From: an uncultured Gammaproteobacteria bacterium
Lineage (GTDB): Bacteria; Patescibacteriota; Microgenomatia; Daviesbacterales; UBA10151
NCBI GenBank assembly: GCA_964446685.1
Contig: CAYUPO010000001.1
Location: 104,502 to 168,501 of the forward strand
DNA: 64,000 bases
Direction: 5' to 3'
Below the pieces are notes generated by a model. It was not told the DNA's origin. It did no database searches and saw only the letters and a program-made list of their open reading frames with translations. Both the position numbers and the translations under genes were made by a program. Shown one piece after another: positions 7,425 to 55,398 of this stretch. Position 1 is the first letter of the stretch, and every line of letters begins with the position of its first letter.

Positions 7425-8996
7425 TTATTCCCATTCCATAGTTGCGGGAGGCTTTGTTGTTATATCATAAACTACTCTATTAACTTCTGTTACTTCGGTT
7501 ACTATTCTGTTTGAAATTTTCATTAATAATTCAAATGGTAAATTAGCTACATCTGCACTCATGGCATCTTTAGCATCCAGAGCTCTTAAGGCAATTGTTT
7601 CTCCATAAACTCTTTGATCACCTCTGACACCGGTTGTTTTGATGTTTGTAAAAATAGCAAAAGCCTGCCAGAGTTTGTCCTGCAATTTGGCTTTTAAAAT
7701 CTCTTCCTGGACTATAAAATCCGCTTGCCTTAAAATCTCTAAATTATAGTCAGTGACAGCTCCAATGATTCTAACTGCAAGGCCTGGACCTGGGAATGGC
7801 TGTCTTTTAACCACTGAATCCGGCATTCCCAGCAATTTACCAACCTGTCTGACTTGATCTTTATAAAAAAGCCGCAAAGGCTCAATTAGGGCCAGTTTCA
7901 TGACTTCTGGTAGCCCACCAACATTGTGATGGGACTTTATATTCTGAGAATGTTTGGTTCCCTGACTTTCTATCACATCTGGATAAATTGTGCCCTGGAC
8001 TAGAAATGTGGCACCAATCTTTTTGGCTTCTCTGTCAAAGATATCTATGAATGTTTTACCAATAATTTTTCTTTTGGTTTCCGGATCAACTACTCCTTTT
8101 AAGGCAGATAGAAATTCTTTTTTGGCATTAATGATCTGCACTTTCATGTGATAATGGTCTTTAAAAACTTTTTTCAAAACATCAGTTTCTCCTTTTCGCA
8201 TTAGTCCTGAATCAATATAAAAAGAAGTAAGCTTGGTTCCGATTGCCCGATGAACTAAGAGAGCAGCAACTGATGAATCGACTCCGCCGGATAAAGCGCA
8301 GATCGCTTTTTCATTACCAACCGACTCTTTAATATCTTCAATCATTTCAGCTACATATTTTTTATTTAAGGGAGATAACTCTGGTTTTAAACCACAGATT
8401 TTTAGAAAGTTGGATAAAATTGTTTCACCAAATTGGGTATGCACTAACTCTGGATGAAACTGAATACCAAAAAGTTTTCTTTTTTCATCTGACATAGCAG
8501 CCACAGGAATAGTTTTGGTAGTGGCATTTGTGACAAATCCTTTTGGTGGTTTCATTACTGAATCTCCATGCGACATCCAGACATTAAATTCCTCAGATGT
8601 TCCTTCAAATAAAGAATTTGCTTTTGATACCTTTCCTACATTTGATACCTTTAAATTAGCTGGCCCATACTCCCGTATTTTCCCTGGTTTTACATCTCCT
8701 TTTAAAAGGTGTGCCATCAGTTGCTGCCCATAACAAATCCCTAAAATTGGAATACCTAATTTAAATACCTCTTCAGAAATAGTTGGACTATCTTTTTCAT
8801 AAACAGAAGACGGCCCTCCTGAAAAAATAATCCCCATAACGTCATTCCCGCGACCTGTACTGAGCGAAGTCGAAGTAAAGCGGGAATCTAAATCAATATT
8901 CTCTGGCAAAATAATTTTTGTCTTCACCCCAAATTCATTTATTCTCCGGGAAATCAGATGTGTTGATTGTGAACCAAAATCGATAATTATTATCAT
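7425..8996 (-). CDS. guaA: GMP synthase, glutamine-hydrolysing (GuaA), carrying a 48-bp in-frame palindromic-element insertion
   Basis: 523 aa; GATase CYGQQ, FHPE, PP-loop SGGVDSSV; extra DSRFTSTSLSTGRGND encoded by repeat at 8841-8888. Confidence 0.9.
   Translation of the reverse strand: MIIIIDFGSQSTHLISRRINEFGVKTKIILPENIDLDSRFTSTSLSTGRGNDVMGIIFSGGPSSVYEKDSPTISEEVFKLGIPILGICYGQQLMAHLLKGDVKPGKIREYGPANLKVSNVGKVSKANSLFEGTSEEFNVWMSHGDSVMKPPKGFVTNATTKTIPVAAMSDEKRKLFGIQFHPELVHTQFGETILSNFLKICGLKPELSPLNKKYVAEMIEDIKESVGNEKAICALSGGVDSSVAALLVHRAIGTKLTSFYIDSGLMRKGETDVLKKVFKDHYHMKVQIINAKKEFLSALKGVVDPETKRKIIGKTFIDIFDREAKKIGATFLVQGTIYPDVIESQGTKHSQNIKSHHNVGGLPEVMKLALIEPLRLFYKDQVRQVGKLLGMPDSVVKRQPFPGPGLAVRIIGAVTDYNLEILRQADFIVQEEILKAKLQDKLWQAFAIFTNIKTTGVRGDQRVYGETIALRALDAKDAMSADVANLPFELLMKISNRIVTEVTEVNRVVYDITTKPPATMEWE
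8841..8888. mobile_element. 48-bp palindromic element inserted in-frame in guaA
   Basis: GTCATTCCCGCG...CTGAGCGAAGTCGAAG...GCGGGAATC; exactly 16 codons. Confidence 0.7.
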
Positions 8997-9523
8997 AAAT
9001 TATTTAAAATAAACTCCATTCTTTTTTCCGATTTCATAACAGGTACCCTGACAACCGTGTGACCATATTTTATATATGTTTCCTCTAATAAGCTATCTAT
9101 CTCTTTTGCTTCTTCTGCAGTCTCTGTTCTGGAATAATCTTTTGAGTATTGCAATAAATCAAAGATAAATACTTTTTTATATTTACTTAGTTTGGCAATT
9201 TCAGATAACTCATACTCATCTGTTATCCCACATTTTTTCAAATACGCAATGGAATCATGCATCCCCCTATCAAAAAAAATCATTTCATTCTTAGACAAAG
9301 ACTTTTCAAGTTGAATTTTTAAATTTACCTGAGCTTTTTGGAATTCAATTTCATTTTCTCTAATCTGTTCCAGAGTTCTACCTTTTTTCAACTCTTGATC
9401 AATTAGTTTTCTAGCAACCTCTTCAGTAATTTTAAACCCTTTTTTGCTTAATAATTTAAGCACTGTGGTTTTGCCTGATGATGGAGGACCTGTTATCACA
9501 TACCAATTATTCTGACTATTCAT
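8993..9523 (-). CDS. P-loop NTPase / predicted small kinase (AAA_28-like)
   Basis: 176 aa; Walker A GPPSSGKTT. Confidence 0.5.
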   Translation of the reverse strand: MNSQNNWYVITGPPSSGKTTVLKLLSKKGFKITEEVARKLIDQELKKGRTLEQIRENEIEFQKAQVNLKIQLEKSLSKNEMIFFDRGMHDSIAYLKKCGITDEYELSEIAKLSKYKKVFIFDLLQYSKDYSRTETAEEAKEIDSLLEETYIKYGHTVVRVPVMKSEKRMEFILNNL

Positions 9524-37188: not shown

Positions 37189-38556
37189 TCAGATATCAAT
37201 TCCTGGGACGGGGAATTTTTTAGCAAAGGAGGTGATCTCTTTTTGAAGCTTGAGTAAGTTTTTGTTTTTAACAATCTCTGCCCGGAATTTTCTCAGTAAT
37301 TCTAAGCGTCCTTCTTTATCAGCTGGCAGAATATATCCTTCAACTTCTTTGATCACCTGGGCAATCCAATTGCCTACCTTCACCATATCTTTTTCTTTCA
37401 TTCCCCGGGTAGTCAAAGCTGGTGTTCCAATCCGGATGCCTGAGGTATAAAAAGGAGGCATTGGATCATATGGAACAAGTGAGAAATTCAGAACGATTCC
37501 GGCAACTTCCAAAGCCTCGGCAGCTAATTTGCCCGACACCTGCTGTCGCTGCAGATCAACTAATATCAGATGATTATCTGTGCCTCCGGAAACCAGATCC
37601 AGACCGTTTTTGGTCAGAGTTTCAGCCAATTTTTGGGCATTTTTAACAATTTGAGCAGCATATTTTTTAAACGAGGCTTTTGAAGCTTCTTCCAGCGCTA
37701 CGGCAATGGCGGCTGTCTGATTGTCATGCGGACCTCCCTGAAGGCCCGGGAAGACTGCAGCATCGATTTTTTTACCCATTTCCGGATCTTTCTTTAACCC
37801 TCTCTCAGTTACCATAATCATCGCCCCTCTTGGACCCCGCAAGGTCTTGTGGGTAGTGGTCATCATCACATCAACATATGGTGCCGGTGAAGGATGCGCT
37901 CCTCCCACTATCAGCCCGGCAATATGTGAAACATCAGCCATCAAAAGTGCACCAACTTTATCAGCAATCTTGCGGAATTTGGCGAAATCGATAGTTCGGG
38001 GGTAAGCCGTAAAGCCGCAAATGATTAAATCAGGTTTTTCATTTAAAACAGCCTCCTCTACTTCTTTATAATCTAACTGACCGGTTTTTTGGGAAACTTT
38101 GTAATGAGCGGTTTTGAAAAACCTCCCGGAAAAACCAATCTCCAGACCATGAGTGATATGTCCACCCTGATCCAGAGCCAGTCCCATCATTTTCTGGCCG
38201 TTTTTCAAAATTCCCATAAAAATAGCGGCATTAGCCGGGGATCCTGAATAAGGCTGAACATTGACATGAGGCACCCCAAACAGTTTTTTAGCTAAATCCT
38301 GGGCATAGATTTCAACTGTATCAACCACTGCATTGCCCTGATAGTAACGTCTTTTTGGATAGCCTTCTGAGTATTTATTGGTAAAAACAGAGCCCAGTGT
38401 TTCAATAACTGCTGAGGAAGTATAGTTTTCTGAAGCAATCATCTCCAGCACCTCTTTTTGGCGCTTTTCTTCCTGTTTAATAGCGTTATAAATTTTAGGT
38501 GATTGTTTCTTTAAGGCCTTCATCTTCGATGGAAATACAATAACCCGAAGTCCCAT
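37189..38556 (-). CDS. glyA: serine hydroxymethyltransferase
   Basis: 455 aa; PLP-lysine region TTTHKTLRGPRG. Confidence 0.9.
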   Translation of the reverse strand: MGLRVIVFPSKMKALKKQSPKIYNAIKQEEKRQKEVLEMIASENYTSSAVIETLGSVFTNKYSEGYPKRRYYQGNAVVDTVEIYAQDLAKKLFGVPHVNVQPYSGSPANAAIFMGILKNGQKMMGLALDQGGHITHGLEIGFSGRFFKTAHYKVSQKTGQLDYKEVEEAVLNEKPDLIICGFTAYPRTIDFAKFRKIADKVGALLMADVSHIAGLIVGGAHPSPAPYVDVMMTTTHKTLRGPRGAMIMVTERGLKKDPEMGKKIDAAVFPGLQGGPHDNQTAAIAVALEEASKASFKKYAAQIVKNAQKLAETLTKNGLDLVSGGTDNHLILVDLQRQQVSGKLAAEALEVAGIVLNFSLVPYDPMPPFYTSGIRIGTPALTTRGMKEKDMVKVGNWIAQVIKEVEGYILPADKEGRLELLRKFRAEIVKNKNLLKLQKEITSFAKKFPVPGIDI

Positions 38557-47495: not shown

Positions 47496-47951
47496 TTATG
47501 AGCCTAAGGCAATTCTTGAGAAAGATTTTACCTGGATATTTTCGCCTAATTTAGCGATGGTTGTTTTGATTAAGGTTTCAATTGTCAGACTGGTATCTTT
47601 AATATATTCCTGATCCATCAGCTCTGCTGGATCTGCAGGATTCATTGATGCAATTTGGAGAGCTAAATCATGAGCTAAAGCTTTGAATTCTTCAGTTTTG
47701 GCTACGAAATCAGTTTCACATTTTAACTGAACCAAAACGCCGATTTTACCGTTGTGGGAATAAGCTTCAACAATTCCGGCACCTGTTTCTCTATCAGATT
47801 TGCCACCAGCTTTGTCTAAACCTTTTTTATGGAGAACTTTTTTGGCTTCTTCGAGATTGCCTTTAGTTTCTTCCAGAGCAGTACGGCAGTCAGCAATTCC
47901 TGCACCTGTTTCTTCTCTGAGTTGTTTAATTAGAGTTATATCAATAGCCAT
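47496..47951 (-). CDS. tsf: elongation factor Ts, minimal form
   Basis: 151 aa; UBA-like N-terminus and CETDFVA core. Confidence 0.8.
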   Translation of the reverse strand: MAIDITLIKQLREETGAGIADCRTALEETKGNLEEAKKVLHKKGLDKAGGKSDRETGAGIVEAYSHNGKIGVLVQLKCETDFVAKTEEFKALAHDLALQIASMNPADPAELMDQEYIKDTSLTIETLIKTTIAKLGENIQVKSFSRIALGS

Positions 47952-49235: not shown

Positions 49236-49775
49236 TTACTCAAGAATTTGGGTTTTGTAGTGTATTCCCTGTTCTTCAAAACTTTTTTCTTCTATTATTT
49301 TTTCAAATGCTGAATAATCCGGAAAATAGGTATCGCCTGAATATTCTCCTTCCACTATAGTCAGATACAGCCTGTCTGCTAAAGGTAGTGCCTGCTCATA
49401 AATCTGGCCTCCACCAATTATAAAGATCTCATTTGAATAAGTATCTTTTTTTGAGGTATCAAACGTATCAGATGTTGCGTTGGCTTTTGGTACTTTTGAT
49501 ACTTCTGATGCTTTTTCTGCCTCCTCTATCGCTTTATCTAATGAATTTACGACTATTGCTCCATCAACTTTATAATCTGGATCTCGGGTGATAATAATAT
49601 TGATTCTGTTTGGCAATACGCGGCCAATTGATTCATGTGTTTTTCTGCCCATGATAATCGGATGGCCAGATGTAATTTCTTTAAATCTTTTCAGTTCACC
49701 TGGGATATTCCAGAGAAGCTTATTTTGACCGCCAATCAGACGGTTTTTATCCATTGCTACAATTAGGGAAATCAT
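49236..49775 (-). CDS. folA: dihydrofolate reductase
   Basis: 179 aa; ISLIVAMDKNRLIG..LPW-like N-terminus. Confidence 0.8.
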   Translation of the reverse strand: MISLIVAMDKNRLIGGQNKLLWNIPGELKRFKEITSGHPIIMGRKTHESIGRVLPNRINIIITRDPDYKVDGAIVVNSLDKAIEEAEKASEVSKVPKANATSDTFDTSKKDTYSNEIFIIGGGQIYEQALPLADRLYLTIVEGEYSGDTYFPDYSAFEKIIEEKSFEEQGIHYKTQILE

Positions 49776-49776
49776 A

Positions 49777-50424
49777 TTAGGTCCTTTTGAGACTAGCTAA
49801 TCCTGGGCACAAGTCAGTTATTATCATTCTAGCTTGATTTAAGCATGGATTAACTCTTAATTTCATATTCAAAGGTACCAGTCTAATACCTGTAACTGCA
49901 AGAACAAGATTTAATTTAACAGTCAGTTTATCTAAAAATGCCGGGTCATTAAACTGGCAGTAACCCATTCTCTCCGACATTAATTCCAGATCATTAATTG
50001 CCCGGTAACTTTCCTCAAAAAAAGTACGCTCATCTGAAGGTAGTCCAGCCAACTCAGAATCAAATTTCTGGTTCCCATTTTGAACCTGATCAAATCTTGG
50101 ACCCGCAATAAAAGCAGATCGTGCTATAGGTATACCCTCATGGTCTAATGTCCGCTCTAAAATGGGATTGACTTCAAATGCACAGGGAAGTGTTCTATTT
50201 CCTATATTTAATACACTGGATACAGGAATCAATTTTAAATTTTCAGCTGCAGTATTGGTTACTTCTTGGTACAAAGCCACTTGTGACGGATCTGACTGCC
50301 ATGTTGGGTAATGCTTTAAAATCTCACCTGTGGAGGTCAGAAAAACATCAGAATCGGCACCATGGGCAATTTTTTTCAAAGAGGTTAGCTTTGCCATTTT
50401 TGGCAGTTCAGGATTAAAATTCAT
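49777..50424 (-). CDS. hypothetical protein
   Basis: 215 aa; immediately upstream of folA in the same operon; no firm family. Confidence 0.35.
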   Translation of the reverse strand: MNFNPELPKMAKLTSLKKIAHGADSDVFLTSTGEILKHYPTWQSDPSQVALYQEVTNTAAENLKLIPVSSVLNIGNRTLPCAFEVNPILERTLDHEGIPIARSAFIAGPRFDQVQNGNQKFDSELAGLPSDERTFFEESYRAINDLELMSERMGYCQFNDPAFLDKLTVKLNLVLAVTGIRLVPLNMKLRVNPCLNQARMIITDLCPGLASLKRT

Positions 50425-50518: not shown

Positions 50519-51361
50519 TTGATCATGACTTCATTTGATCTTCAATACCAAAAACTTCTTAAAGAGATAATGACCAATGGCATTGAGGAGATCAATGAAC
50601 GAACTAAGCACGGTGTCAAAGCACTCCCTGGTAAATCAATTGAACTAGAAGCTGGCGAAGGTTTTCCGCTTCTTACTTTGCGTAAAATCCCAATTCGGAT
50701 CTTTGTCGCTGAGCAGGTCTGGTTTTTGACTGGATCAAGGCGACCATCAGAATTTCTGAATAAATTCACCAAGATCTGGGATGATTTCACCAATGTTGAC
50801 GGCGTAGTTTCAACTGCTTATGGCTATAGATGGCGACATCATTTTGGCAGAGACCAAATTGCTTTATTGATTAATCTGCTAGAAAAAGAACCCTCTTCCA
50901 GGCATGGCGTGGTGATGATGTGGGATGCTGCAAGTGATGGTCTCTCCCCGACTTTCAAAAAAGCTAATATCCCCTGTCCCTACTCTTTTACCGTCAATAT
51001 TATTGGCGGAATGCTGCACATGCATCTGATTGTGAGATCAAATGATGTCATTTTAGGTCTACCACATGATGCAGCTGGTTTTGGTTTGCTGCAACGAATT
51101 CTGGCTGCCAGACTTGGTGTCAAAGTCGGCAAGTACACTCACACTATCTCCAATGCGCATGTTTATGATATACATTATGACGCAGCGCAGGAGATGATTA
51201 AGCGAAAAAATAAGCATCAGCCTGTGGAAATCAGCGCTTCAAAAAATTGGTTTAGCAGGGCAGAAAAAGGAGATGAAAAGTTGGTAGCAGAAATAGTTGA
51301 TGCACTGAGTAGTCAGTACCAGCCAGGAGAAGCGTTAAAGGGATTGAAAATAGTTCTTTAA
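50519..51361 (+). CDS. thymidylate-synthase-family (ThyA/dCMP-hydroxymethylase superfamily) pyrimidine C5-modifying enzyme; Asn-to-Asp at the base-specificity position
   Basis: 280 aa; FPLLT.K, RWR, SRH, catalytic Cys in IPCPYS (PCP not PCH), RSNDVILGLPHD aligns to E. coli RSCDVFLGLPFN with N177 replaced by D. Confidence 0.7.
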   Translation: MIMTSFDLQYQKLLKEIMTNGIEEINERTKHGVKALPGKSIELEAGEGFPLLTLRKIPIRIFVAEQVWFLTGSRRPSEFLNKFTKIWDDFTNVDGVVSTAYGYRWRHHFGRDQIALLINLLEKEPSSRHGVVMMWDAASDGLSPTFKKANIPCPYSFTVNIIGGMLHMHLIVRSNDVILGLPHDAAGFGLLQRILAARLGVKVGKYTHTISNAHVYDIHYDAAQEMIKRKNKHQPVEISASKNWFSRAEKGDEKLVAEIVDALSSQYQPGEALKGLKIVL

Positions 51362-51452: not shown

Positions 51453-52127
51453 TTGACAAAAGAAAAACTTATGACACAAGGAATATTAACCAAACAACAA
51501 ATATTAGAATTGATTGAGTCAGAACAGCTCAAATTTTCCCCAGCAATTGATTCATTTCAGGTCCAATCACATTCCATCGATCTGCGACTCGGGTATTCAT
51601 TCATGATCCCTAAACTATGGTCTTTGACTGAGAAAGGACGCGAAGCCTTTTTGATTGATTATCTGGATGAAACTGAAAGATTTGAACTGGTTGAGCTGGA
51701 GCACAAACAATTTTTTGACCTTTTACCAAAAGAATCGGTTGTCGCTTCAACTCTTGAAGAAGTCTCCTTACCAGCTAATTTAATGGCTGTCCTCTACCCA
51801 CGTTCTTCTATTAATCGACGCGGCCTGTCTGTTGATCTTTCTGGTATTGTTGATGCCGGATATGAAGGAAGGTTGTTGATACCTATTACCAATAACACGC
51901 CACATGTAATCAGAATTTACCCAGGTGAAAGGTTTTGCCAGTTAGTATTTTATCCACTGTCTGAAGATATTAAGGTAGAACAAAGCAGATGGCATAAAAA
52001 GGATATTATTATAGGTAGACTCCCTGAAAAGAAAAAAGCTGAGGAAAAATATATTGTCTCTGGCGATATAAAAGGATTAAAACAAAAGTTTGCTCTGACT
52101 GCTCCTAAAACCAATGATTCAAAGTAA
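51453..52127 (+). CDS. dCTP deaminase / dUTPase-superfamily protein (Dcd-like)
   Basis: 224 aa; SIDLRLG, LYPRSS, GIVDAGYEGRL motifs; the position aligning to the Dcd catalytic Glu appears to be non-acidic. Confidence 0.6.
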   Translation: MTKEKLMTQGILTKQQILELIESEQLKFSPAIDSFQVQSHSIDLRLGYSFMIPKLWSLTEKGREAFLIDYLDETERFELVELEHKQFFDLLPKESVVASTLEEVSLPANLMAVLYPRSSINRRGLSVDLSGIVDAGYEGRLLIPITNNTPHVIRIYPGERFCQLVFYPLSEDIKVEQSRWHKKDIIIGRLPEKKKAEEKYIVSGDIKGLKQKFALTAPKTNDSK

Positions 52128-53157
52128 ATCTGGCTTCATATTTGAAGGAAAAACTCCCACTGATGTCTTAAAAGATGTCCAGGAAGCTATTCAAACTCAT
52201 GGCTCCTCTATTCAAACCCAAAGAGGAATTGCTAAATCGATTCGTGGCGCAACTTTTATCATTAATGACATCTCAAATGAAAAGAAAAATTATCCTTACT
52301 GGGACAAACAGTCAGATGACTGGTATCAGGATAACTTTGTCAGAAAAGAAACAACATTAGCTCCGGAAATAATCAAACCTGGACAGGATATTTATCCTTA
52401 TAAATATGCCTGGAGATCAAGATATTATGACAGTGGAACTGGTTATATTGTGGCGGTTATAACTGTCTTAAAAAAACTCAAAATTAAAAAGCTACAGATT
52501 AAAAATGAATCTCAACTGATTGATTTACTCAAACAAAGTTATCTGTTGATTCATCCAGAAATCGTTTTGGCTGTCTTGTCCTGGAAAGGTTTAAAACTAA
52601 TCAACTTTTATTTGGAAAATCCAAAAATCTTAGAGTTAGAGCTGCAAACTCAAAGACGAGATACTCTGGAATCAGTTATTGAAGAAGTTAAACAATCTCC
52701 CGCGACCAGACGCGCCATCATGCCATCATTTACTTATGAACATATTGACCATTCAGGAGCTGCAGGTGGAGTACCTGTCTACCAAAATTATCAGCTCTAT
52801 GTAAATTTTGACAAAAAAGGTAATCCTGCAAGTATTACTTCATATCATCTACATAGGGCGATTGATGCTTTTGGCGGGGCTCAGCTGGATATCAATCATG
52901 ATAAAGAATGGGGACTATATGCATCGAAAAAACTAAATTTACCTTTGGAAAAAATAGTTATTTATGTCAATGACGTCTGGGCTAGCTTTGATAAAGATAT
53001 GCAACACCTTTCAAATAAAACCGATATTCGCTCTTGGTTATTTTCTGTGACAGACGCCTATGATCCAAAACTGGAAGATATAGATAAAAGACTGAGTTCC
53101 CCTCTGTATAAAAAGAAAATTAGTTACACTTTGTTTCAAATTACCAGCTATGGATAA
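52114..53157 (+). CDS. ThyA-fold paralog with no cysteine (predicted non-catalytic or non-canonical thymidylate-synthase-like protein)
   Basis: 347 aa; RRAIMPSF..VPVYQNYQLYV..HRAIDAFGG..VNDVW parallels ThyA core motifs; zero Cys residues; 14-bp overlap with the upstream dcd-like gene. Confidence 0.5.
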   Translation: MIQSKSGFIFEGKTPTDVLKDVQEAIQTHGSSIQTQRGIAKSIRGATFIINDISNEKKNYPYWDKQSDDWYQDNFVRKETTLAPEIIKPGQDIYPYKYAWRSRYYDSGTGYIVAVITVLKKLKIKKLQIKNESQLIDLLKQSYLLIHPEIVLAVLSWKGLKLINFYLENPKILELELQTQRRDTLESVIEEVKQSPATRRAIMPSFTYEHIDHSGAAGGVPVYQNYQLYVNFDKKGNPASITSYHLHRAIDAFGGAQLDINHDKEWGLYASKKLNLPLEKIVIYVNDVWASFDKDMQHLSNKTDIRSWLFSVTDAYDPKLEDIDKRLSSPLYKKKISYTLFQITSYG

Positions 53158-53170
53158 TTTAATAATTGTA

Positions 53171-54325
53171 TTACCTTTTTCCAATAACAAATTCCGTCCC
53201 TGTAATTCTCGAAATAATTGCCCTTAAAAAAGTCAGTGAACACGACTTAATGAAACTATCAATGATCCATGATTCTTTTTTTGTTAATAGTTCTTCTAAA
53301 TATGCAGGGTTGTATCTTACAAGATTAGATAAATAGAACATTATTAAATATATTGCAATTGTTTCATTCATTGGAATCTGTTTATTAATTTTATAAGGTA
53401 ATGAAGTTACAAACTCTAAACCATCATCAAAATAATTCACTTGAGCTATAGAACCAAGTGATTCTAGAACTAAATTCCTACATTTTTTTTCTGGGATTAT
53501 ATCTGGATTATCCCAAGGGATTGTTTGTCTACTTTGAAAAAAAGTAAAAGCTAATATAATATCTCTGCTAACCTGGAAATATTCTCTTGCATATTTTTCT
53601 GGAACCTCGACTAGTTCAAATTTATCAAAAAAAATATTTAAAGACTTTTTATATTTTTTAAATTCATTAAAATTGGGAATACCAACTAAAGGCCATGCTG
53701 TCTTATTACTATGGTCAACTAAATTTACATAGTAACAGCTTTCAACTTTTCTTCTTCCATATCCAGCTATTAATGATTGATAAGAAATATCCGTACAATA
53801 ACTTAGTAGCTGTTCGACACTTAGAGACTGTTTTTTAATTGGAGATTCACAAAACATTTCATAAAATCTTTCAAAGACTCCATTATCTTTTATAATTTTA
53901 ATTGTTTGTTTTTTTATTTTTGTAAAATCTTTCGGAAGACAACTTGCACCATGGCTTATTCTTTTACCTCCAATCTCGGGATTCTTTTGAATGATTAATG
54001 CCTTTGCTAAATTCAAAAAACAGTAGTAATAAAGTAATGCTGCAGATCTAGGATGAAGCTGCTTTGCAGCATGATAATAATTTTTTGCCTGTCTAATATA
54101 GCCCTGAAAATGCTTGTAAGTGGTTTTTATTTTTCTTCTTGCAACACCTTGCTCGAGTAAATGTTTAATTCCAACTGATTCGATTTCGGAATAATATTCT
54201 ATTAATATCCATAGTTCATCATCTATTTGCCCATCCGTTTTCAAACCTTGCAAATTTCTAGTACTTAATGGTTGTCTAATCCATCCCGAAGCTGCTCTAA
54301 AAGTTCCTGTAGGAATTTCACTCAT
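53171..54325 (-). CDS. hypothetical protein
   Basis: 384 aa; AT-rich codon usage; no family recognised. Confidence 0.4.
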   Translation of the reverse strand: MSEIPTGTFRAASGWIRQPLSTRNLQGLKTDGQIDDELWILIEYYSEIESVGIKHLLEQGVARRKIKTTYKHFQGYIRQAKNYYHAAKQLHPRSAALLYYYCFLNLAKALIIQKNPEIGGKRISHGASCLPKDFTKIKKQTIKIIKDNGVFERFYEMFCESPIKKQSLSVEQLLSYCTDISYQSLIAGYGRRKVESCYYVNLVDHSNKTAWPLVGIPNFNEFKKYKKSLNIFFDKFELVEVPEKYAREYFQVSRDIILAFTFFQSRQTIPWDNPDIIPEKKCRNLVLESLGSIAQVNYFDDGLEFVTSLPYKINKQIPMNETIAIYLIMFYLSNLVRYNPAYLEELLTKKESWIIDSFIKSCSLTFLRAIISRITGTEFVIGKR

Positions 54326-54947
54326 TTATAAGTAATCCAGTTATTTCTTTAAATAAATCTTCTTTGCTTTGCATACCATCTATTACTTTGACTGTATCAG
54401 GATGAGCTGAAGCAAATGTCAGATAACCTTGTCTTAATTTTTCTAAAAATTGGACGCCCTGCATCTCATAAATCAGATCCTGACCTTTTCTATCAGCATT
54501 TGCTCCTCTTTTGATACTTTCTTCAGTCGGTATATCGATAATGATAAATAAATCCGGATAAGCACCTGAATTTTTAACACAGTATTCTGATAAGGTATCA
54601 AGTAGACTGAGATCAACCCCCTGAACTATCCCCTGGTAAACATAGGTTGAGGATTCAAACCGATCTGTAATCACCATTTTCCCGGCATCAAGATTTGGTT
54701 TAACAACTTGATCCATAAACTCGGTTCTAGCGGCGTAAAAAAGGAGAGTTTGGGTAACTGGATTGGCCATTTGGTCACGAGGTTTTAAAACGACTTCTCT
54801 AATCTCTTCGCCCATTTGGGTCCCCCCAGGTTCGCGAGCTAAGACGACATCAGTACCAAGATCTAGGAAATATTTTTCAAGCATTTTGGCCTGGGTAGAT
54901 TTACCACAGTTGTCGATGCCTTCTAGTACTATGAATTTACCTTTCAT
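54318..54947 (-). CDS. tmk: thymidylate (dTMP) kinase
   Basis: 209 aa; LEGIDNCGKST P-loop, DRF/LID features. Confidence 0.85.
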   Translation of the reverse strand: MKGKFIVLEGIDNCGKSTQAKMLEKYFLDLGTDVVLAREPGGTQMGEEIREVVLKPRDQMANPVTQTLLFYAARTEFMDQVVKPNLDAGKMVITDRFESSTYVYQGIVQGVDLSLLDTLSEYCVKNSGAYPDLFIIIDIPTEESIKRGANADRKGQDLIYEMQGVQFLEKLRQGYLTFASAHPDTVKVIDGMQSKEDLFKEITGLLINE

Positions 54948-55053: not shown

Positions 55054-55398
55054 TTATCTCTTATCCCCGCTTCCTCCTAGTTTGCCTCTTTCCATTCGCG
55101 AATAAAGTTTTTTGATATTTTTCTCAGCTACTTCTTCCAGATTAACATCCAGCTCTGAAGCAATTTGAGTCAGATACCACAAGACATCTCCTAGTTCTAA
55201 TGTCAGCATCTCTTTATCTTCCTGCGTGATCTCCCCTTTTTTATCACGAAAAATTTTTTTAATTTTTTCGGATATCTCTCCTGCTTCACCGGATAATCCC
55301 AGCACAGGGTAAATTATCGGATGACCAATTGGCGGATATCCAGCAGTTTTACGAGAGTCTTTTTGATAGTTTCTGAAACTATAATTGGTTTTCTTCAT
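55054..55398 (-). CDS. MazG-like all-alpha nucleoside triphosphate pyrophosphohydrolase
   Basis: 114 aa; LGLSGEAGE..ELGDVLWYL metal-binding motifs. Confidence 0.65.
   Translation of the reverse strand: MKKTNYSFRNYQKDSRKTAGYPPIGHPIIYPVLGLSGEAGEISEKIKKIFRDKKGEITQEDKEMLTLELGDVLWYLTQIASELDVNLEEVAEKNIKKLYSRMERGKLGGSGDKR

Follow-up and report, generated by a model that had tools for sequence, protein, structure and literature searches.

A thymidylate-synthesis operon in the 64-kb window (the whole stretch of DNA analysed here) encodes a cysteine-free protein that appears to be a diverged thymidylate synthase (TS) paralogue, with the nucleoside-monophosphate pocket kept and the Cys nucleophile lost. 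In related loci the gene for this TS-fold protein occupies the same slots as a zinc dCMP deaminase, and the two genes never occur together. From this genomic displacement we predict that the TS-fold protein is a cysteine-independent dCMP or 5-methyl-dCMP deaminase that displaced the zinc enzyme, a reading to which we give an even chance of being right. Its enzymatic activity, substrate, catalytic residues and place in the order of steps are what we infer; the fold, the residue mapping, the conservation and purifying selection, the module membership, and the exclusivity and shared slots with the deaminase are shown by the analysis. The features discussed are listed in Table 1.

Table 1. Features of the thymidylate module in the window, with coordinates, strand and basis of assignment
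Feature	Coordinates	Strand	Basis or remark
Serine hydroxymethyltransferase (SHMT)	37189..38556	-	HMM label; ∼12 kb away here, in-module in many related loci
Dihydrofolate reductase (DHFR), constant module member	49236..49775	-	Pfam DHFR_1 7e-53; in nearly every related locus
ThyA-like enzyme	50519..51361	+	Pfam 1.5e-51; alignment to PDB ThyA
ThyA-like catalytic Cys153	50975-50977	+	Alignment to PDB ThyA
ThyA-like Asp184 at the Asn177 position	51068-51070	+	Alignment to PDB ThyA
Dcd-like protein (dCTP deaminase/dUTPase fold), no catalytic Glu	51453..52127	+	Pfam DCD E 1.6e-32
Dcd-like Pro144 at the catalytic Glu position	51882-51884	+	PDB dCTP deaminase TLE-L aligned to LIP-I
Overlap of Dcd-like ORF end with TS-fold ORF start	52114..52127	+	14 nt, sequence read
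TS-fold protein, subject of this analysis	52114..53157	+	347 aa, 0 Cys
Helical insertion, ∼70–80 residues (about 104–182), with invariant His147-Pro148	52423..52659	+	Model secondary structure, motif spacing relative to ThyA, invariant columns
Arg199-Arg200, equivalents of phosphate-binding Arg126/Arg127 of ThyA	52708..52713	+	Profile alignment and hhalign
Val222 (codon GTC) at catalytic Cys146 of E. coli ThyA	52777..52779	+	HMM and hhalign alignments
His247-Arg248-Ala-Ile-Asp251, equivalent to Gln165-Arg166-Ser167-x-Asp169 of ThyA	52852..52866	+	hhalign; invariant in the window's clade
Asp259 (codon GAT) at Asn177 of E. coli ThyA (base-specificity residue)	52888..52890	+	hhalign
Thymidylate kinase (Tmk), frequent module member	54318..54947	-	Pfam 3.6e-40

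The reading frame and the missing cysteine

As the first-pass annotation had described, the reading frame is intact and free of cysteine codons, and its first 14 nt are shared with the end of the Dcd-like ORF, stop codon included. This overlap likely couples translation of the two genes; in orthologous loci the gap between them ranges from −23 to +6 nt (seven loci) or is 72 or 111 nt (two loci). A complete lack of cysteine is not statistically unusual in the window. Cysteine makes up 0.58% of residues in its long ORFs, so that the probability of finding none in 347 aa is ∼0.13, and 15 of 51 long ORFs have none.

The informative feature is instead that no member of the family has Cys at the site of the nucleophile. 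We compared a close set of 32 homologues (50–93% identity) and a distant set of 30 relatives. The Cys146 position holds Val in all 32 of the former and Pro, Val, Ala or Ser, never Cys, in the latter, which bears out and extends the earlier observation that the canonical nucleophile is missing. That annotation had also raised the possibility that a frameshift or sequencing error conceals a Cys-containing motif. The ORF is intact, stop codons abound in its other frames, the Val222 codon lies two changes from a Cys codon, and Val is found in all 32 close homologues; such an artefact is excluded.

Relationship to the thymidylate synthase fold

The relationship of the TS-fold protein to TS is real and, at the sequence level, weak. 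The Pfam Thymidylat_synt model matches with an E-value of 9e-4 and 18.9 bits, short of its cutoff of 24.3, and the protein falls far under the cutoff of all NCBIfam TS models. As a single query it retrieved no match in a PDB sequence search; a family profile reached a best E-value of 0.0014 against the PDB. Comparison of the TS-fold family with the neighbouring ThyA-like family by hhalign gave a probability of 91.9% (E 7e-7) with broader alignments and was not significant with narrow ones. Fold prediction returned the TS alpha/beta fold, with its central sheet present in the model, and not an unrelated family, the outcome that the first-pass annotation had named as fatal to its assignment.

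Three of the four motif parallels drawn in that annotation recur in the profile alignments: RRAIMPSF pairs with SRRxIxSAW, PVYQNYQLYV with PCHxxxQFYV (placing Val222 on the Cys), and HRAIDAFGG..D with QRSxDxxLG..N. The proposed parallel between NDVW and GDxHxY also aligns, but W289 and S291 vary in the window's clade, where the equivalents of the deoxyribose-binding His and Tyr are not conserved, a point against the deaminase reading. The C-terminal spacings R248–D259 (11) and D259–D287 (28) equal those of E. coli ThyA. The supposed N-terminal extension proved to lie elsewhere: residue ∼17 onward aligns to position 10 of the TS model, and the extra length relative to ThyA is the internal helical insertion between the Y96/R101 motif and D183. 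The N-terminal half does not align by sequence over the folate-binding site, which in ThyA comprises Glu58, Trp80, Trp83 and the C-terminus. Folate use has probably been lost.

Neighbouring genes

Linkage to Dcd-like and ThyA-family genes, as first annotated, holds, but these neighbours are not an ordinary ThyA and Dcd. The ThyA-like enzyme keeps its Cys and has Asp, Pro and His in place of Asn177, His147 and Arg127, respectively. Among ThyA-type ORFs of the metagenome loci, 77 of the 78 that could be read have Asp at the Asn177 position; the single Asn belongs to a second, canonical ThyA copy. Likewise, among the best 120 homologues of the ThyA-like protein, a P-x-D motif is found in 110/110 readable sequences (the other 10 were unread). 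The Dcd-like protein carries Pro for the catalytic Glu in all module-linked orthologues (60 by regex and six further by eye). Because of this substitution, the module appears to have no deaminating activity outside the slot filled by either the zinc deaminase or the TS-fold protein.

The ThyA-like, DHFR, Dcd-like and TS-fold genes occur together in every adequately long locus with a group-1 family member, and this association persists through varied gene orders, down to 27–33% identity and across a GC range of 39% to 67%. At least 414 metagenomic loci encode the Asn177→Asp ThyA-like enzyme together with the Dcd-like protein that lacks the Glu. Full-text literature searches found no description of the TS-fold family or of this pair in cells. 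The TS-fold family itself is a small one, with 45 clusters in a set of 1.84 billion representatives. An anti-phage defence system was considered and rejected, as PADLOC gave no match for the five genes tested. A phage origin was also rejected; no relatives of the family were found in viral contigs, and the neighbours include rpsB, tsf, frr, topA and pyrG.

Mutual exclusion with the zinc dCMP deaminase

A census of 83 distinct ThyA-like genes (modules), drawn from 97 loci no longer than about 20 kb, part of them chosen through the TS-fold protein itself, revealed two alternative gene contents. The zinc dCMP deaminase was detected with a profile built from a recurrent ORF cluster whose PF00383 identity was checked with Pfam. 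Fifty-nine modules encode this deaminase, 17 encode the TS-fold protein, none encodes both, and the seven with neither are all on short contigs (Fisher p = 1.7e-12 for exclusivity, uncorrected for phylogeny). At E ≤ 0.1 the deaminase profile found nothing in any TS-fold locus, the whole window included; since the loci examined reach about 20 kb, a zinc deaminase could lie elsewhere in these genomes. The TS-fold protein is not itself a member of the zinc deaminase family: it has no Pfam match to PF00383, no cysteine, and the fold of TS.

The two genes also fill the same positions. Both versions occur in the order ThyA-DHFR-[X]-Dcd, where X is the deaminase or the TS-fold gene, in the order ThyA-(DHFR)-Dcd-[X], and in a divergent slot upstream of ThyA. 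A rough neighbour-joining tree places the TS-fold modules in approximately five groups interleaved with deaminase modules, and the ThyA-like enzyme of locus L012 is closer to that of a deaminase-type module (72.8%) than to the nearest other TS-fold-type module (64.9%). The switch between the two genes thus does not appear to trace to a single clade. ThyA-like enzymes from the two kinds of module differ only at positions outside the aligned active-site motifs. Taken together, the exclusivity, the shared slots and the Asp at the Asn177 position point to a C4-deaminating enzyme rather than to C5 chemistry with an alternative nucleophile. The first-pass annotation had offered a partner protein, a nucleotide-binding protein or an enzyme with another nucleophile; these options were reasonable, but they missed the exclusivity with the deaminase, the slots and the Asp context.

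Pocket conservation and competing explanations

Pocket residues were mapped through the hhalign alignment to the ThyA-like family, and the equivalents of Arg21 and Glu58, in the N-terminal half, were assigned by motif resemblance only. Relative to ThyA, the protein retains R199/R200, R248, D251 and G255, all invariant in the 32 close homologues. Of the four-arginine site (Arg21, Arg126′, Arg127′ and Arg166), R199, R200 and R248 are thus placed by alignment and R37, at Arg21, by resemblance. At the Asn177 position, all 32 close homologues and 28 of the 30 distant relatives have Asp, and the remaining two have Glu; in TS homologues N177D is a determinant of dCMP (cytosine-type) specificity (PMC13326640). 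Tyr223, which adjoins the site where the Cys used to be, hardly varies. Purifying selection on the gene is strong (dN/dS = 0.074), and the residue pattern looks like that of a ligand pocket still in use rather than one in decay. A metal site formed by His245-x-His247, His262 and Asp263 was considered as a candidate and is not claimed here.

This conservation bears most directly on the chief rival to the deaminase, a non-catalytic TS paralogue (pseudoenzyme) that binds a cytosine nucleotide and regulates or scaffolds thymidylate enzymes such as the coupled Dcd-like protein. Loss of the nucleophile across the whole family favours such a protein, as does a gene that usually adjoins, and often overlaps, the Dcd-like gene. 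Between the same genome pairs the TS-fold protein is 27% identical and the ThyA-like enzyme ∼64%; such fast evolution, common in accessory or regulatory proteins, again favours the pseudoenzyme and counts against a deaminase. A second subgroup (P0041, P0043, P0053 and others) poses a similar difficulty. Its genes neighbour those for ThyX, SHMT and a canonical Dcd that has the Glu, a context in which a deaminase is not obviously needed; it has lost the Arg-Arg pair that is invariant in the window's clade, a sign of pocket decay, and nonetheless persists. In the window's clade, however, the polar pocket is invariant and selection is strong despite the lost Cys, a poor fit to a non-catalytic partner. 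Moreover, exclusion of a dCMP deaminase and occupation of exactly its slots are not what one would expect of a regulator, and zinc-deaminase modules with the same ThyA-like and Dcd-like proteins do without it. We regard the pseudoenzyme as unlikely, though still a live rival.

TS functions only as a dimer, each active site being completed by Arg126′/Arg127′ of the partner subunit. The TS-fold protein could accordingly be the inactive half of a heterodimer, giving Arg199-Arg200 to the active site of the ThyA-like enzyme, whose own pair is Arg-His or Arg-Gln. The retained central sheet and the RR pair in the window's clade are consistent with such an arrangement. We nevertheless consider it quite improbable, given that RH/RQ ThyA-like enzymes also occur in about 59 modules without a TS-fold gene, that both proteins have RQ at locus L012, that no ThyA-like partner lies near the ThyX-linked genes, and that the exclusivity with the deaminase is left unexplained. 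Slightly less probable again is a C5 or other pyrimidine enzyme that relies on another nucleophile or cofactor, for which Tyr223 and a flavin of the kind used by 5-hydroxy-dCMP synthases are candidates: the near-invariance of Tyr223 and, in one subgroup, translational coupling of the TS-fold gene to SHMT speak for it, but 5-hydroxy-dCMP synthases keep Cys146 (PMC13326640), no modification or glycosylation genes lie near the TS-fold gene, the context is housekeeping thymidylate synthesis, and the deaminase replacement again goes unexplained.

A predicted route to dTMP

We know of no deaminase with a TS fold. As a deaminase, the TS-fold protein would supply the deaminating step of the thymidylate module in place of the zinc-dependent enzyme, and it may have originated from a duplicated TS whose product pocket was kept. 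The overall route would run dCTP → dCMP → 5-methyl-dCMP → dTMP. The Glu-less Dcd-like protein would hydrolyse dCTP to dCMP, and the Asn177→Asp ThyA-like enzyme would then methylate dCMP to 5-methyl-dCMP, releasing dihydrofolate for recycling by DHFR and SHMT. Hydrolytic deamination of 5-methyl-dCMP by the TS-fold protein would yield dTMP for phosphorylation by Tmk. Alternatively, the TS-fold protein may act before the ThyA-like enzyme, turning dCMP into dUMP. We propose that Asp259 binds the cytosine ring and protonates N3/N4, while water activated by pocket residues attacks C4; His247 (at the Gln165 position) and Tyr223 (at the His147 position) are candidates for this activation.

A precedent comes from phages: their TS homologues carrying Asp in place of Asn177 make 5-methyl-dCMP, and the genes for these homologues adjoin those for PF00383 deaminases selective for 5-methyl-dC nucleotides, yielding dT nucleotides (bioRxiv 10.1101/2024.12.05.627091). 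The complete scheme, in which thymidylate arises without a dUMP intermediate through the Glu-less Dcd, the N177D ThyA and a cysteine-free, probably zinc-free deaminase, is more tentative than the deaminase assignment itself; we think it possible and lean towards doubt.

Comparison with known systems

The TS-fold protein resembles ThyA (EC 2.1.1.45, PF00303) in having equivalents of Arg126/127/166, Asp169 and Gly173 at the same positions and spacing, and in clustering with DHFR, SHMT and Tmk. It differs in its residues at Cys146 (Val, Pro, Ala or Ser) and Asn177 (Asp), in its ∼70-aa internal helical insertion, in scoring below the Pfam gathering threshold, and in that its operon already encodes a genuine ThyA-like enzyme with the Cys. 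The Asp at the Asn177 position is shared with T4 dCMP hydroxymethylase, the CMP hydroxymethylase MilA, a phage 5-hydroxy-dCMP synthase (PDB 9iqc) and Xp12-type phage dCMP methylases. These cytosine-specific homologues conserve Cys146 (PMC13326640) and perform C5 chemistry, whereas the TS-fold family never has this Cys and, unlike the phage enzymes, was not found in viral contigs. The zinc dCMP deaminase shares the module position of the TS-fold protein, but its fold is unrelated and its HAE/CxxC zinc motif has no counterpart there. Finally, the phage deaminase mSCD-B5 needs triphosphates, whereas the TS-fold protein keeps a monophosphate-type Arg cluster.

Implications

The TS fold has long been studied as a Cys-dependent C5 transferase. 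The TS-fold protein of many uncultivated bacteria probably represents a novel type of deaminase for cytosine nucleotides, as predicted from its gene context. If so, the fold would also support hydrolytic C4 deamination, the protein would be the first deaminase built on it, and it would have replaced the zinc dCMP deaminase without being homologous to it. To our knowledge, a cytosine-nucleotide route to dTMP has been proposed so far only for phages with 5-methylcytosine DNA. The at least 414 metagenomic loci would then reflect a widespread route in cellular organisms that reaches dTMP by way of cytosine nucleotides, and this would be the first parallel in cells to the phage thymidine route via 5-methyl-dC nucleotides. 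Methylation sequencing is one area with a practical interest in deaminases selective for 5-methyl-dC nucleotides. At present all three proteins carry the plain annotation 'thymidylate synthase' or 'dCTP deaminase'; if the prediction is right, the thymidylate step is consequently likely to be wrong in metabolic reconstructions of these reduced genomes.

A cysteine-free family with a thymidylate synthase fold

The window belongs to a cellular genome and is low in GC (∼38%); rpsB, tsf, frr, pyrG and topA surround the TS-fold locus. Close homologues are found in Candidate Phyla Radiation genomes assembled from metagenomes and named Daviesbacteria and Woesebacteria. The 14-bp overlap reported by the first-pass annotation was reproduced, as the TS-fold ORF starts 14 nt before the Dcd-like ORF ends, with an ATG, and so was its cysteine-free product (0 Cys in 347 aa). 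Taken alone, the absence of Cys is unremarkable because this genome is Cys-poor: at a Cys frequency of 0.58%, the probability of finding none in 347 aa is ∼0.13, and 15 of the 51 long ORFs in the window are Cys-free. The YaaC-like gene downstream sits in the window's lowest-GC part (GC 0.32 over 52–54 kb), and phmmer did not detect its product in the orthologous metagenome loci L001–L012.

Features of the window and of two compared metagenome loci
Feature	Coordinates	Strand	Remarks
Elongation factor Ts gene	47496-47951	-	151 aa only; equal length in L001 and L003
ORF between folA and ThyA-like gene	49777-50424	-	215 aa; shared with closest locus L004 only; no Pfam or NCBIfam match
ThyA-like enzyme	50519-51361	+	Cys retained (C153); Asp at Asn177 position, codon 51068-51070
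Dcd-like protein	51453-52127	+	Aligns with solved dCTP deaminases; Pro144 at 51882-51884
TS-fold gene	52114-53157	+	ORF intact; 347 aa
YaaC-like protein	53171-54325	-	Inserted between TS-fold gene and tmk; Pfam PF14175, E 6e-33
MazG-type nucleotide pyrophosphohydrolase	55054-55398	-	Small; between tmk and pyrG
ThyA-like gene of L004 (closest relative)	8301-9142	+	In two ORFs; frameshift or assembly error
Thymidylate kinase/canonical dUTPase fusion of L036	13975-15207	+	410 aa; in deaminase-type module

Sequence support for a TS fold in the product is weak. The Pfam Thymidylat_synt model matches at E 9e-4, under its gathering score, NCBIfam TS models score far under their cutoffs, and a PDB search with the single sequence gave no match. 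A family profile found S. aureus ThyA in the PDB (E 0.0014, covering the SRR...PC motif region), and profile-profile alignment of the broad TS-fold family (A2) against the ThyA-like neighbours (A3) gave a probability of 91.9% (E 7e-7). Structure prediction, which the first-pass annotation had proposed as a check on the fold, agrees: Foldseek searches of the PDB and viral models were concordant with a TS fold. One BFVD match, A0A8S5MQL3, is a 408-aa phage protein named for a CMP/dCMP deaminase domain, suggesting that a TS-deaminase fusion exists in phage.

The family has 39 clusters at 51–93% identity; 1.84 billion representatives, searched exhaustively with a profile, yielded only 45 matches, 29 of them at E ≤ 1e-30. 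Its members are named only ‘thymidylate synthase’ or ‘hypothetical protein’ in databases, and a full-text literature search found no description of the family or its module in cells. The TS-fold protein evolves more rapidly than the ThyA-like one beside it; dN/dS, measured against the L004 orthologue (91% identical), is 0.074, and the gene is, on this measure, functional. All mapped pocket residues are invariant in the close set. Distant members (25–40% identity) carry Pro, Val, Ala or Ser at the Cys position, never Cys, and near-invariant D259, Y223, Q224, Q227, H245, H262 and D263; judging from these alignments, nucleophile loss is ancestral to the whole family. A second, divergent subgroup (P0041, P0043, P0044, P0051, P0053 and P0056) has lost the Arg-Arg pair. 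Its gene overlaps the start of SHMT, to which it is translationally coupled; ThyX and a canonical Glu-containing Dcd adjoin it in L015 and L098/L099, and DHFR in L100/L101. This subgroup may have another role, or none.

Residues were mapped onto ThyA from the A2/A3 alignment, with E. coli numbering taken partly from PMC13326640. R199/R200 correspond to Arg126/Arg127, V222 to Cys146, Y223 to His147, H247 to Gln165, R248 to Arg166, D251 to Asp169, G255 to Gly173, D259 to Asn177, and D287/W289/S291 to Asp205/His207/Tyr209. The R248–D259 and D259–D287 spacings are 11 and 28, as in ThyA. The Gln165 and His147 positions face the C4 substituent. Both residues of ThyA lie at most 6 Å from the pyrimidine C5 (PMC13326640). 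The extra length of the TS-fold protein, earlier described as an N-terminal extension, is instead a helical insertion of ∼70 residues between Y96/R101 and D183.

Operon neighbours

The ThyA-like enzyme has 1960 relatives among proteins and at least 414 metagenome loci. Every orthologue examined carries Asp in place of Asn177, Pro in place of His147, and His or Gln in place of Arg127. Since Asp at the Asn177 position is an established determinant of dCMP over dUMP (PMC13326640), the enzyme is expected to prefer dCMP by this published rule. This expectation notwithstanding, it accompanies DHFR, SHMT and Tmk as a housekeeping TS would.

The Dcd-like protein scores above the NCBIfam dCTP-deaminase cutoff and has a conserved C-terminal extension of ∼45 aa. 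Catalysis by dCTP deaminase depends on the Glu of the conserved T-L-E-L motif (E138 in E. coli). All module-linked copies have Pro in its place, which rules out deamination by the known mechanism. Bifunctional Dcd-Dut enzymes and T4 gp56 offer an analogy, on which the Dcd-like protein would probably act as a dCTP diphosphatase and not as a deaminase.

Probable displacement of a zinc deaminase

Every locus of sufficient length that holds a group-1 member of the TS-fold family also has the ThyA-like, DHFR and Dcd-like genes alongside it, the ThyX/SHMT-linked subgroup being the exception. This co-occurrence spans several gene orders, in Microgenomates (L001–L011), a Parcubacteria locus (L012, 33% identical), L013, and GC-rich non-CPR-like contigs (L014, GC 67%; L017, GC 60%). 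Tmk and SHMT are frequent further members.

A metagenome search with the ThyA-like alignment yielded 414 relatives, and the best 80 loci were carried forward. In these best 80, ThyA-like is almost always accompanied by Dcd-like, and the TS-fold gene is present in a minority only. Clustering of unlabelled neighbour ORFs identified the commonest extra gene, a 150–177-aa protein (55 ORFs in 54 loci) whose Pfam match is PF00383 (zinc cytidine/deoxycytidylate deaminases). When identical sequences were collapsed, 83 distinct modules remained: 59 with the zinc deaminase only, 17 with the TS-fold protein only, none with both, and seven, all on short contigs, with neither. This mutual exclusion (Fisher p 1.7e-12, uncorrected for phylogeny) holds within the loci searched; no zinc deaminase match was found in the TS-fold loci or the 64-kb window even at E ≤ 0.1. 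The two genes share three slots: the DHFR/Dcd-like gap, after Dcd-like, and divergently upstream of ThyA-like. TS-fold modules fall into ∼5 groups of a rough neighbour-joining tree, with deaminase modules interleaved, and the ThyA-like protein of L012 is nearer to a deaminase-type module than to any other TS-fold-type module. Exclusivity, common slots and an interleaved tree together are what non-orthologous gene displacement classically produces.

A non-catalytic nucleotide-binding partner, which we consider unlikely, would leave this displacement unexplained. It is improbable that the protein is a heterodimer partner giving arginines to the ThyA-like enzyme, a role at odds with its absence from 59 modules. 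C5 chemistry with an alternative nucleophile or cofactor has no context in its support and is very improbable.

A putative deaminase in the module

We propose, with middling confidence, that the TS-fold protein is the putative deaminase of the module, acting on 5-methyl-dCMP or dCMP. Such a role fits its monophosphate-type Arg cluster, its cytosine-type Asp, its lack of means for C6 attack, and polar H247 and Y223 at the Gln165 and His147 positions. Read most economically, the module has three needs to fill. The Dcd-like protein would perform the triphosphate-to-monophosphate step; ThyA-like, DHFR and SHMT would provide C5 methylation and dihydrofolate recycling; and the zinc deaminase, or the TS-fold protein in its stead, would carry out cytosine-to-uracil-type deamination.

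There is precedent in phage metagenomes, where PF00383 deaminases co-localise with TS homologues having Asp at N177; five of seven such homologues make 5-methyl-dCMP, one linked deaminase is selective for 5-methyl-dC nucleotides, and the authors conclude that these pairs produce dT nucleotides from 5-methyl-dC nucleotides (bioRxiv 10.1101/2024.12.05.627091). Where phage contigs have predicted modified cytosine, TS/deaminase pairs are also accompanied by PRA-PH, a pyrophosphohydrolase domain related to the MazG type (bioRxiv 10.1101/2024.12.05.627091). The cellular modules contain the same TS/deaminase pair, together with DHFR, SHMT, Tmk and a Dcd homologue that lacks the Glu. A duplicated TS already binding its product 5-methyl-dCMP is a plausible evolutionary starting point for the deaminase. 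The TS-fold protein is a TS-superfamily member with a predicted new function. If both were confirmed, the deaminase activity would be a new enzyme class for the TS fold, and the 5-methyl-dCMP route a new way for cells to make dTMP.
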